NCBI GenBank assembly: GCA_052168235.1 | Contig: JBQLZK010000015.1 | Location: 1 to 64,000 of the forward strand | Length of the DNA stretch: 64,000 nucleotides | Direction: 5' to 3' | Origin: Thainema sp. | Lineage (GTDB): Bacteria > Cyanobacteriota > Cyanobacteriia > Phormidesmidales > Phormidesmidaceae | Part shown: positions 25,688 to 35,526 of the stretch, piece after piece | How positions within the stretch are numbered: the stretch's first letter is position 1 | Layout: every line of letters starts with the position of its first letter | The notes under the pieces: model-generated | The model's input: the letters and a program-made list of their open reading frames with translations, nothing else | Databases searched by the model: none | Told to the model about the DNA's origin: nothing | Translations under genes and position numbers: made by a program

Positions 25688-28600
25688 TCACAATTCCACT
25701 CCCGACGCCTCCTTTGCCTGAGATTTGACCGATGGCTGCCGCTGTTGTCGCTTTTGATATAGAGACCTCAAATTCCTGGGTGATCGCGAGGCAGATGTTT
25801 GCCAATTTTGCTTATCTGCTTCCGTCAGGTTGGCGACCTGGGTGATATTGCCTTCACTGTTCGCCGAAACACCAGCACTGTGATCATTCTTGGCTACACT
25901 GAGTCCTTTTGGGGTCTGCCGGACTGTGTACTGTCGCCCCCGAGCCTCAATCGTGCCGTTTTCATCACGCTGCACCAAGCCCGCTGCTTCCAAGTTGCCC
26001 AGAAAGCGACGGGCATGATTCAGAATGCTAGACCCAAGTTCTCGCTGTTGCTCAAATGCGGACAAATCTGCGGCCATCTGCTGGGCATCTGAGGACGCCA
26101 AATTCTTGAGTTCGCCAGCCTTTGCAGACTTGCCCATCGCTTCGATGTTGGCCAACTCCTGATCGGAGCGGCCCAACGTTCTGGCAGCTCGATACCAGTT
26201 CCGAAACTGCTCGATGGTGGGTGAATTCTGTTGAGTCTCAAGGGGCTGAGCCAGCTGTTGATCCAGATCCGGATCATTCTGAGCGATCGCATTTTGGATA
26301 AAAGCTCCAGCCGCAACCGTCCCTGTTGACGGATTCAGTGGCGTTTCCGGATCTGACGCCATCTGCTCTTCAGCCTGATTGATGGCCGACAGCACACTCT
26401 CCCGTTGCGCGTCTGGCAGGTCTTGAACAACTCCTCGCAGACGCTCCAGCGTTTCTTGGTAGCTCAGCGATAAACTCGGTCGCTCGTTCCCCAAATCCTC
26501 TGTATGAGACGGTTCTACCGTTTGAGCTGCAACGTCTGTACTTAAGGCATTAGCTAACTTATTTGATGGTTCAGTCACAGACTGAGCGGTCTGCTCATCC
26601 GGGGAATCGGCCATTTGAGATCGCACATTATCTGGTGCTGGTGCTGCTTCACTTGGTTCTGGTTCCGGCTCAACTGACAACTGCTGCTGAATGGCCTCAG
26701 CAAAGCCCTGCTGCCGCAGATTGCGAGCAAACATCCCCGCATAGGCGCGATCTAATCCTCGGGATTCTCCTATCGGATTATGAACTGCTGTTTCTGCCAG
26801 GTTTAGAGAACCATCGTCGGAGAGATTAAAGACCATTTCGGAGTCAATATAGGCATCACCGTTCTCGACCAGGGTATGGTAAAGCATCAACTGCTCCCCG
26901 TGGCGTTCAATATTAAGGGGAATAAAGGGCTCATTCTCGACCTTGAGATAGAAGTCCTGATCAGCCATCACGGCCTGCGACAATCCGGCCTCCTCTAGAA
27001 GTTTGCCAACGTATTTCTCAGGCTGACCAGACTGTTCTGTCCATCCTCCCACACAAGCCACTTTCGGCTCTGGCTCTTGCGCCCTGTCTGCAACAGCGGA
27101 GAGACTCTCTTCAACGGGTTCATCGGGTGAGGGTTCATCTGTGGCCGGAGTAGCTTCCTCCTGATTGGGCTGATCCGGATCACGGACATCTTGAGCTGCA
27201 ACCGCTAAGTCCTGCTCGGTAGGATCGCTAAACGAGATGCGAGCGTCCTCACCATACTCGTCAGCTAGAGTTTCGAGCTGATCATCTCGATATGCGATCG
27301 CATTTGCTTGTTCAACTGCTTCTTCACTGGCTGCACTATCTATATCGCTGTAGCGATTGAGCAGTCGTGCCCGCTCGCGCCCAATGGTCGTTGGCCCTTC
27401 TGGATCAAGGCGATAGGCAGATGATGCAGGCTCAGACTGCTCGGACACATTAGCAGGTGGCATCTCGTCTAAACCATTTTGAGCGATATGATCTGGGACT
27501 TCAACCCAGTCTGCCTGCTCTGCCTGCTGCAAGGCACTCTCCAAGCCCGCGCGAACCGCCTCCAGATTAGACAAATCAACCGAGGGAGCCAGCCCAGCGG
27601 TTTCAATGACGTTCTCTACTGAATCTGACCAGGAAAATTCAGGGATTTTTTCACCCACCAATTCTCGCGCCTGCCCAAGATGGGTGGTCGCCTCTAATCG
27701 CTGATGGCGACCATCTTGGATGTAGCTCACCACCTCTTCCAATCGGTCTGCCGGGAAAGCCGCTTCCATGCGATCGCTGATCGAATAAAATTCATCCCCT
27801 ACTGCCGCCATCAGGTCTTCATCCAGGTAAACATCCTTTTGCTTTTTGCCTGTCTGAAGCAGATAACCATCAGCATGGGGTGCAGCCTTCAAGGTGATTT
27901 GCTCATCACTCGTCTTGACGATACCTTGATGCTCGCTCACCTCCATAAACTGCCGGACATTGCGAGCCGCAGGTAGCACAACGGGCGACTCCGACAACTG
28001 CTGTTGTAGATCATAGCCTCGCGGCAACAGCAGCATGGGTTCCACACCGCCAGTAGACATGGTCGCGTTCACGACATTGCCGTCCTTACCATACTTTTCA
28101 GAAGCCCGCAGTAGATTGCCGCGCAGCACCTGCCGGACTTCCCGTTCACCCGCCTGACGCTCATCGAACAGCGCCATCACGTCGCTGCCCATCATCGTTT
28201 TTTGGACAGGCGTCATATCGACCGCACCAATGCGATCAACGTTGATTTTGGAGAGCGGTAGGGGAATTTCCCGGCTAGAGTCCGCTAGTGAGACGTTCAC
28301 CATCCATTTCGAGGGAGCCACAGGATTCGAGTCACCCAGTCGATTCTGGCTCTCAGCTTCCGCATCAGCAGCCAGAATTTTATCGAGTGACGTTCCTCGT
28401 TTGCTCACACCTGAAATCGCGCCATAGAAGATGCGGCCATTCTCGGTAGACAGCCGAACCGTTTGACCGGGTCTGAACCGTTGCAGTTGAGTGAGCTGCG
28501 TTTGCTGTTTATCTAAGCGACGAGAGGCCCGATTAAGCGCCGTTTGCTGTTTCTCTGGATCAGGAATGCGCTGCTCGATTTTGGCTGTTTGTTGGGCCAG

Positions 28601-34644: not shown

Positions 34645-35526
34645 CTACAGCTCCAAATCAGGGCTGCGCTGCTGCCGATTTGGAGTCCGTTGAGCCTGCT
34701 CCTGCTGATGCTCTGCCTCACTCAACTGACGAATAGACTGCCAGGTCTGCTGATCGGTAATCGTTAGCCCATCAGCGACCTTGACTCCGGTTTCATCGCC
34801 TATGGTGATGCCCCCGGTCTGCCGATTCTCAACCCACATAACACCATCCGGTTGCAGAGTTACGGCGTACATTGTGTTCTCCGCCCGAAAGATACCTTCA
34901 GCATCTGGCTCAGCTCCTCGTGCGATCGCACTATCTATGACCTGACCAGCATGGTCTAGAATGCTTTGCGCCATCGCCTCCTGAGGATCGGTATCCGAAG
35001 GACTAGCCTCTCCATCGGCTGCTCTAGCAGCTGGTGATAAACCGGACGGATGGAGCGAATGTTGACGACTCTGCTGAATGATTCGCAGTGGATGGGTTGC
35101 CGTCTCTGAACGTTCAGGGCCAAACTGTAACCGTTCATCGGCAACCAACTCCTCGTCATACGGCACGCTATCCTCGGCTGTGCCTGTGGTCTCAGAATCG
35201 GATGATTCGGCCTCCGAAATGAAACCCAGCGAAATAGGATGCACGTGCGATCGCACTGACAAACTCTGTTCTGGAGCTTGTCCTGATACCTGTTGGGCAG
35301 TTCGTTCCATTACCTTCTGCTCATCCTCGGTTAGCTCATAGCCAGGTAAATCAGCCCGTCGCTGGTGACTCACTGCAACCTGCCACGTATCACCCGGTTC
35401 CACCCCCTGACAATTCAGGACATCAATGCGCTCAGCCAACCGCTGGCGCTGCAAATCGCTGAGAGCCGTCAGTAAGGCTCCAGCCGTTGTTGTGTTAGGT
35501 AGTGAAATTGTGGTTCCGGGTCGCAT
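34645..35526 (-). CDS. hypothetical protein with shared C-terminal domain
   Basis: 293 aa, RBS GAGGAGG, ends RQQRSPDLEL. Confidence 0.8.
   Translation of the reverse strand: MRPGTTISLPNTTTAGALLTALSDLQRQRLAERIDVLNCQGVEPGDTWQVAVSHQRRADLPGYELTEDEQKVMERTAQQVSGQAPEQSLSVRSHVHPISLGFISEAESSDSETTGTAEDSVPYDEELVADERLQFGPERSETATHPLRIIQQSRQHSLHPSGLSPAARAADGEASPSDTDPQEAMAQSILDHAGQVIDSAIARGAEPDAEGIFRAENTMYAVTLQPDGVMWVENRQTGGITIGDETGVKVADGLTITDQQTWQSIRQLSEAEHQQEQAQRTPNRQQRSPDLEL

Follow-up and report, generated by a model that had tools for sequence, protein, structure and literature searches.

A shared C-terminal domain and tail as a candidate export signal on three proteins of a cyanobacterial conjugative element

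Why would three otherwise unrelated proteins, encoded beside a conjugation apparatus, end in the same way? The question is raised by the stretch of DNA analysed here (the window), 64 kb from the start of contig C15 (117,474 bp) in the 7.5-Mb genome (G000) of the cyanobacterium Thainema sp. Within it, a methylase-helicase of 2328 amino acids (aa), a 431-aa protein and a 293-aa protein are encoded near a relaxase and a type IV secretion system (T4SS). The original prediction, made from the sequence, was that their C-termini share a domain and a relaxase-like tail that mark a payload injected into the recipient. We found that the C-termini are homologous, that the domain is terminal and that it is tightly linked to this T4SS family. 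At a probability of about 0.55, we favour reading the shared C-terminus as a two-part signal, analogous to the XVIPCD or to the BID domain with its tail, that recruits proteins to the T4SS of this element.

A domain shared by three C-termini

Aligning the three C-termini with MAFFT brought all four motif blocks that had been matched by eye into register: SSILNHARRF/TDIAVNAEQF/QSILDHAGQV, a block ending in Tyr, VAKNDHSAG/VENQETGG/VENRQTGG and NLTEADKQNWQ/GMSEQDQIRFQ/GLTITDQQTWQ. The common domain covers ~85-100 aa of an aligned C-terminal stretch of ~115 residues. Pairwise BLASTP of the last 160 aa returned E values of 2e-8, 1e-10 and 1e-9, the 99-131 aligned columns being 26-30% identical. In Smith-Waterman alignment the pairs scored 89-116, where shuffles averaged ~30 (z 10-17), and 0/1000 shuffles scored as high; with the last 30 residues removed, z was 6-17, again with 0/1000 shuffles as high. 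The N-terminal parts of the three carriers fell into separate BLAST components (E<=1e-4). These results bear out the predicted alignment and confirm the C-terminal homology, with significant profile similarity, of three proteins that are otherwise unrelated at the sequence level. Searched with a profile of the three C-termini, both the window and the complete genome gave exactly three matches (copies 1-3), each on the minus strand, copy 2 being matched over 32883-33218; no copy was found outside C15.

We modelled copy 3 with AlphaFold2 from a 38-row alignment (predicted local distance difference test (pLDDT) 88.1, predicted template modelling score 0.72). The model runs from a helix (residues 6-27) through five strands between residues 38 and 77 to a second helix (81-105) and a low-confidence tail. 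Searched as a profile against 177,635 PDB sequences, the domain came closest to a phage capsid protein, at E 0.38, and matched no T4SS protein; Foldseek with the model returned nothing from the PDB at E<=1e-3, and the best Protein Atlas score (0.85) was below the useful range. Fold-search scores lay under the tool's noise level of 7-8, so no fold was assigned. Because Pfam, NCBIfam and PHROGs, like the PDB sequences and Foldseek, yielded no relative, we treat this as a previously undescribed domain without a clear solved fold.

To place the domain more widely, we scanned 1,835,955,588 protein representatives with the three-row profile at E<=1e-3. The scan returned 45 proteins, five of which (P0031, P0035, P0042, P0043 and P0045) were dropped as spurious because their matches were internal or multiple and lay in repeat-rich proteins with unrelated Pfam domains. 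Among ~1.84 billion proteins, 40 credible representatives thus remained, and in 39/40 the match ends <=25 residues from the C-terminus. The exception, P0030 (462 aa, from a metagenome), has two tandem copies, the second at the very C-terminus and ending QLEV. Grouped by N-terminal similarity together with the window's three proteins (43 in all), the carriers comprise a helicase/DUF6908 type (n=11), a 293-aa type (n=9), a 431-aa type (n=9), two small groups (n=4 and n=2) and 8 singletons, five of them <150 aa. An alignment search aimed at longer carriers gave at least 10 proteins.

A tree of 33 domains, which excluded the fragments P0013, P0022, P0024, P0036 and P0047 and whose alignment held no helicases >540 aa, clusters the copies by carrier type rather than by element (support 100/98 for the 293-aa type and 84/82 for the helicase type). 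The triplication is therefore old, each carrier having kept its own copy since before the elements diverged. The gene trio recurs on a contig of a metagenome-assembled genome (L004) at 90% identity, on two metagenome contigs (L007 and L008) at 68%, and in the genomes G568 and G569. Contigs searched with the three-row alignment yielded one genome locus and two metagenome loci. In G569, from the host's family, we observed 10 domain copies on contigs C59, C92, C95, C106, C109 and C117 (four helicases, three 266-269-aa proteins and three 223-aa proteins), from which it follows that several related elements coexist there.

Linkage to the secretion system and the tail of the relaxase

Within the host's order, a 29-row domain profile (E<=1e-4) found the domain in 23/172 genomes and in 8/19 genera, including the host's own; the three-row profile found it in 2/400 other genomes of a phylum-wide sample. 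A homolog of the VirD4/TraG-type coupling protein (T4CP; E<=1e-30) is present in 70/172 genomes of the order, comprising 23/23 domain-positive and 47/149 domain-negative genomes (Fisher p 8e-11, related genomes not being independent). Domain and T4CP homolog share a contig, within ~30 kb of each other, in 17 of the 23 domain-positive genomes (place tables read by eye); the remaining six are fragmented assemblies. In five of six further neighbourhoods, T4SS genes adjoin the domain-bearing helicase, with T4CPs at 34-58% identity, VirB4 and homologs of other channel genes; in the sixth, the payload block lies at the contig start.

The domain is thus tightly linked to this T4SS family. The expectation that its matches would be confined to T4SS-bearing plasmids finds support as regards the secretion system and none as regards plasmids: tblastn of PLSDB with the domain gave no true match (two chance matches at E ~0.1), and most matches sit on draft contigs. 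Plasmid homologs of the 2328-aa helicase align only to about residue 2001, and so lack its C-terminus. The host genome also contains a second T4CP homolog (C39:57968-59551, 39% identity) and therefore a second T4SS-bearing element.

Beyond the domain lies a disordered Gln/Arg/Lys-rich tail of 15-35 residues that ends hydrophobic-Glu-hydrophobic. This motif falls within the last 5 residues of 27 of the 43 domain proteins, and 34/43 have Glu-hydrophobic there. As a background, we took the 5,888 stop-to-stop open reading frames (ORFs) of >=150 aa in the host genome, of which 15 end [LIVM]E[LIVM] and 56 have the looser Glu-hydrophobic ending; the helicase, the 293-aa protein and the relaxase account for three of the 15. 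The endings are as first described, GVEL, GMEMD and DLEL on the three carriers and RQRELEL on the relaxase.

The relaxase is the one protein that must pass through a T4SS, its obligate substrate, and it shares the tail. The family set comprised 12 relatives from databases and 13 from genomes, and 23 of these 25 relaxases end E-[LMI]-x-[LVA], the motif following a disordered Gln/Lys/Arg-rich stretch: ELEL in 10, ELSL in 2, ELQA in 4 and E[MLI]QV in 7. The Planktothrix plasmid with the closest PLSDB relaxase has no T4SS. A model of relaxase residues 500-722 (pLDDT 83.5) predicts a first module of helix, four strands and helix, a second of helix, five strands and helix, and a 31-residue disordered tail (model residues 193-223, pLDDT below 50). 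In this model, the secondary-structure elements of module 2 follow one another as they do in the shared domain. The VIA-align 2 top-50 lists of the domain and relaxase models have eight PDB entries in common, mapped over the same chain ranges; all map to module 2 except 2ou5_B, which maps to module 1.

Tails of this kind also occur where the domain does not. In four more distant cyanobacterial elements (G260, G366, G216 and G212), the last residues of a large protein, encoded a few kilobases from the relaxase, are NIELN or ELEMV; the protein has 1125-1333 aa in the first three and is a 221-aa fragment in G212. Its C-terminus resembles relaxase module 2 (hhalign P 8e-5, probability 61%). Two of these proteins weakly match a eukaryote-type RNA-dependent RNA polymerase (RdRP) family (PF05183, 26.3 and 22.1 bits; cut-off 23.8, passed by the first only); possibly the large protein is a two-barrel polymerase that the T4SS delivers to serve as primase or transcriptase. 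On plasmid1 of Leptolyngbya sp. NIES-3755 (AP017309.1), which has a related T4SS, the relaxase ends LNLEI, a Strawberry-notch (Sno) helicase GVEMG and a 627-aa protein GMELS, each after a Gln/Lys-rich stretch; the C-terminal region of this helicase differs. We also observed on this plasmid a Toprim-like stretch, seen by eye, before the Gln/Lys-rich tail of the Sno helicase (L102, 19974-27710), and a 131-aa protein upstream of the relaxase that ends EMEL. Across the T4SS family, the tail motif looks like the shared element, and the alpha/beta domain like a lineage-specific addition.

The locus and its neighbouring genes

The relaxase operon and T4SS genes span 44.4-58.3 kb on the plus strand and include several proteins without a family match; the three carrier genes lie on the minus strand to their left (Table 1).

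Table 1. Positions of the features discussed, in the window unless a contig is named.
Feature	Position	Strand	Evidence
2328-aa protein: weak N6-methylase region, Strawberry-notch helicase (AAA_34 + Helicase_C_4), DUF6908, shared C-terminal domain	25688..32674	-	
Shared domain copy 1 and Gln/Arg/Lys-rich tail, end GVEL	25691..26062	-	BLASTP, profile, alignment
431-aa protein: ~5 helical repeats (~45 aa each) without family match, then shared domain	32877..34172	-	
Shared domain copy 2 and tail, end GMEMD	32883..33221	-	BLASTP, profile, alignment
ssb, 129 aa, without domain or tail, end ...EPTEAST	34185..34574	-	Pfam SSB
293-aa protein: N-terminal part without family match, then shared domain	34645..35526	-	
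Shared domain copy 3 and tail, end DLEL	34648..35001	-	Alignment, profile, AlphaFold2 model
Conserved block from payload genes to relaxase operon: 2 small ORFs, M23 peptidase, AAA+ ATPase, DUF6753, ParA-like, actin-like	35537..43983	-	
Intergenic region between divergent operons; presumed place of the origin of transfer (oriT)	43984..44427		
NikA-like relaxosome accessory protein	44428..44781	+	PF21983, 32.9 bits
MobA/VirD2-type (MOBP-like) relaxase, 722 aa	44778..46946	+	PF03432
Relaxase residues 500-722: 2 helix/beta-meander/helix modules and 31-aa disordered tail, end RELEL	46275..46943	+	Model
VirB4-like ATPase of T4SS	47628..50840	+	Weak matches
VirD4/TraG-type coupling protein, proposed signal receptor	56461..58263	+	TraG-D_C 96.5 bits, TrwB_AAD_bind 84.1 bits
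Large protein of G260	L029:10236-13610 (C4)		
Large protein of G366	L034:9866-13864 (C2)	-	
Large protein of G216	L041:12399-16349 (C6)		

The helicase assignment of the 2328-aa protein is secure, with AAA_34 at 65.6 bits and Helicase_C_4 at 94.1 bits, past Pfam cut-offs of 27 and 30.5. Its methylase region has no match to Pfam N6_Mtase, and an NPPF-like motif is visible by eye; among its homologs, N6_Mtase reaches 26.1 bits in P0040 (cut-off 20.4, no single stretch passing) and 20.1 bits in P0029, with a best E of 6.5e-6. The relaxase passes the PF03432 cut-off (76.2 bits against 24.6) and scores 56.7 against the 250 required for NCBIfam TraI_MobP. The ssb product lies barely above the cut-off for the Pfam SSB OB-fold (26.9 bits against 26).

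For the 431-aa protein, PHROGs, NCBIfam and Pfam held nothing. We observed in its residues 1-320 the repeat pattern AG[VM][DE]...A..I.....G.E.S..Q...L..A, and the repeat number varies among relatives of 217-431 aa. The 293-aa protein has a single, sub-threshold Pfam match (DUF5610, E 0.0084, 17 bits against 26.4) and nothing in PHROGs or NCBIfam; the best Protein Atlas score of its N-terminus, 0.77, is below the useful range.

The conserved block has the same gene order on the metagenome contig L007. Its AAA+ ATPase (567 aa, 38977-40680, minus strand) finds the IteA anti-phage ATPase as best NCBIfam match, at 70.9 bits far under the cut-off of 510. The AAA+ ATPase and DUF6753 genes (38977-41380, minus strand) belong to the block of L007, and neither was seen in the six more distant neighbourhoods.

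Further left, a single ORF of 5079 aa (7046-22285, plus strand) combines PA14 and Calx-beta with many Ig-like domains and 19 RHS repeats. By its appearance it encodes a polymorphic surface or toxin protein of the Rhs type, cargo that lies beside the conjugation genes; small ORFs follow it at 22315-23283. Genes for XisH, XisI and a DUF2887/DUF4351 protein (23682-25574, plus strand) directly adjoin the 3' end of the methylase-helicase gene. Downstream of the window, C15 carries at 65-99 kb a run of very long minus-strand ORFs (1547-2019 aa), possibly a gene cluster for a natural product borne on the same replicon.

Readings of the shared C-terminus and comparison with known systems

If the shared C-terminus is a recruitment signal, its folded alpha/beta part (helix, five-stranded meander, helix) would dock each protein on the VirD4-type coupling protein in the donor. 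The flexible Gln/Arg/Lys-rich tail, which ends hydrophobic-Glu/Gln/Ser-hydrophobic at the free carboxyl end, would be fed into the translocation channel. The methylase-helicase and the 431-aa and 293-aa proteins would be injected into the recipient with the relaxase-bound single strand, where they would act on incoming DNA before any plasmid gene can be expressed; the methylase-helicase, arriving as protein, could modify or remodel that DNA at once. We infer coupling-protein binding, translocation and a payload function. This two-part signal fits best because the domain is terminal, the tail is disordered and ends in a carboxyl-end motif shared with the relaxase, the carriers are unrelated and the domain is linked to the T4CP.

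Several observations weigh against this reading. SSB, encoded among the three carrier genes, has neither domain nor tail, which counts against SSB as part of the payload. The terminal Glu-hydrophobic pair is missing in 9 of the 43 domain proteins, at least three of which are fragments, and the Gln-rich tails of the 431-aa and 293-aa proteins are acidic on balance, whereas those of Agrobacterium-type signals are basic. Since T4CP homologs occur in so many genomes of the order, genome-level co-occurrence is less specific than same-contig linkage. A query with the relaxase's C-terminal 223 aa matched 3/172 genomes of the order and none in 20 of the 23 domain-positive genomes; in five genomes checked with PF03432, no relaxase lies on the carrier's contig, and two have none at all. 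Several of these elements appear degraded, their helicases cut short to 1340-1401 aa and their sets of T4SS genes incomplete. The C-terminus of the large proteins in the more distant elements matches the shared domain with a P of only 0.013. Finally, hhalign of the domain with the relaxase C-terminus was not significant against a close relaxase alignment (P 0.13-0.26) and gave P 0.075 against a broad one, collinear over 86 columns. We rejected these values (0.075-0.26) as proof of homology and keep them as a lead only. Of the expected kinship with the relaxase, the like order of elements in the models and the tail motif are seen; sequence homology is not significant.

The same resemblance to the relaxase serves a different explanation, in which the domain is a docking module that works in the donor alone, tethering the three proteins to the relaxosome, the T4SS or each other (as in loading the helicase at oriT), and nothing is exported. 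Its genomic association with the T4SS would be the same, the relaxase modules of like order might just as well serve mutual interaction, and any essential interaction could account for long-term retention in the domain tree. An assembly domain, however, has no need of the near-invariant terminal position, the disordered tail or the carboxyl-end motif, which are typical of export or recognition tags. The methylase-helicase also lacks an obvious donor role at oriT, and its helicase family is widespread on plasmids without this C-terminus. We consider docking without export unlikely.

We give still less credence to a domain that binds DNA, single-stranded DNA or the plasmid's SSB and brings the proteins to the incoming strand after their expression in the recipient, the tail serving regulation or stability. 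The three genes surround ssb in conserved synteny, and the carriers include a DNA enzyme. The conserved positions of the domain, however, are Gly, Tyr, Asn and Asp, the Asp of the LTxxDQxxW helix being invariant and no basic residue being so, and Pfam, NCBIfam, PHROGs and the PDB sequences gave no match to a nucleic-acid-binding family or solved protein. In E. coli, SSB recruits partners through an acidic-aromatic tip, which the SSB encoded here, ending EPTEAST, does not resemble; the terminal motif on relaxases would also go unexplained. Least probable is a tail that marks the proteins for degradation or unfolding, by which the AAA+ ATPase of the element or a host protease would confine them to a brief period: AAA+ unfoldases are known to recognise hydrophobic C-terminal tags and that ATPase belongs to the conserved block, but its gene was not seen in the six further neighbourhoods mapped by BLAST references, the linkage is to the T4SS as a whole, a degron would not be expected as the relaxase's most conserved terminal feature, and such a tag could coexist with export, an unfoldase feeding the T4SS.

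Were oriT at ~44 kb, the transferred strand would be the sense strand for minus-strand genes on its left, and in better-studied plasmids, according to the accessible part of PMC11541004, leading-region genes are placed for transcription from the transferred strand. The original argument that the three genes point away from the presumed oriT, which disfavours early expression, is sound in its logic and lacks its anchor: in the intergenic region between the divergent operons, we located no oriT or nic site, finding only two short palindromes. We observed by eye two ~20-nt direct repeats (..ATGACCAAAC.TG.C.G), 53 nt apart, at 44228-44300 upstream of the NikA-like gene; they may be accessory-protein binding sites of oriT.

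A bolder extension of the recruitment signal, to which we give somewhat less than even odds, is a modular export code common to an entire family of cyanobacterial conjugation systems. The relaxase's helix/beta-meander/helix module and tail would have been copied onto other proteins, with a cargo that depends on the lineage: methylase-helicase, two uncharacterised proteins or a two-barrel RdRP-like polymerase. A donor would then inject, with the single strand, a tailored enzyme kit that modifies or remodels DNA and possibly primes or transcribes it; the terminal tetrapeptide would act as the signal common to all lineages, and the folded module would be a lineage-specific T4CP adaptor.

The way in which conjugation cargo is chosen is known for only a few proteobacterial systems. 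If the C-terminus is indeed a recruitment signal, it would mark the injected cargo of a plasmid family common in filamentous cyanobacteria, whose conjugative plasmids may carry natural-product clusters (PMC8600333, in the text open to us). Delivery of the methylase-helicase as protein would be an alternative to leading-region expression from the incoming single strand, giving early protection without early transcription. The C-terminus would also offer a portable tag of ~120 residues for protein delivery into cyanobacteria.

Among known signals, the XVIPCD consists of a folded region of ~120 aa and an unstructured Gln-rich tail, binds the all-alpha domain of VirD4 and needs its last 20 residues for export, as the available portion of PMC8740702 describes. 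The C-terminus studied here is likewise a module of ~100-120 residues on otherwise unrelated proteins, with a folded alpha/beta part and then an unstructured Gln-rich tail; its terminal position on T4SS-associated proteins (39/40) and its low-pLDDT Gln/Arg/Lys-rich tail follow the same pattern. The two share no sequence similarity, as the searches of PDB sequences (best E 0.38), Pfam and NCBIfam indicate. The predicted order of elements also differs, alpha-alpha-beta-beta-beta in the XVIPCD (same source, same portion) and alpha, five strands, alpha in our model. No XVIPCD chain appears in the Foldseek or VIA lists of the domain model, an absence that does not exclude a relation. The carriers differ as well: the XVIPCD occurs in Proteobacteria, on antibacterial toxins of a T4SS used for killing (the X-Tfe effectors of Xanthomonas), whereas the shared domain sits on a DNA enzyme and two uncharacterised proteins of cyanobacterial conjugation, where the relaxase has the tail too.

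The BID domain of Bartonella Beps, VbhT and alphaproteobacterial relaxases has a helical fold, and its signal is common to relaxases and other substrates. It resembles the present case as a two-part signal, a folded domain of ~100 aa with a short C-terminal tail. As to sharing between relaxase and other proteins, the tail motif is common to both here and the order of elements is alike in the models; homology of the folded parts is not significant. The five-stranded sheet of our model differs from the helical BID fold, no sequence relation was found between the two, and the BID tail is positively charged, whereas the tail described here is Gln-rich with a terminal hydrophobic-Glu-hydrophobic motif and not simply positive. 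BID plus tail works on a conjugative T4SS and sends a non-relaxase protein into recipient bacteria, according to the accessible text of PMC5675462 and 10.1101/2024.03.25.586700.

The Dot/Icm system of Legionella, a type IVB system with adaptor proteins, uses a short disordered C-terminus with a Glu-rich E-block and a hydrophobic residue near the carboxyl end, and its signal needs no folded domain; the likeness to the shared tail is one of motif flavour only. TSA and TSB are internal domains of a MOBF relaxase and, to our knowledge, are not known on other proteins. The module described here is terminal and sits on non-relaxase proteins, and its fold searches gave no structural match to any relaxase; in the TraI of F and R1, TSA and TSB are folded domains within the relaxase that mediate T4SS recruitment (PMC3912908, as far as its available text goes).

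Polyvalent proteins of conjugative elements that combine a methylase with SWI2/SNF2-type helicases, including Strawberry-notch-like ones, have been proposed to act on DNA injected into the recipient (PMC5512222). That paper, in its accessible part, names no C-terminal export domain and describes polyvalent proteins as scarce in cyanobacteria. In the present element, by contrast, three separately tagged proteins would divide the function among them. That an F-type T4SS transfers plasmid proteins is established (PMC8406263, in the portion available).

We know of no recognisable T4SS protein signal in cyanobacteria, and searches of open-access text yielded no paper on one. The principle is a known one; what is new is the domain, its terminal motif and the phylum in which they occur.

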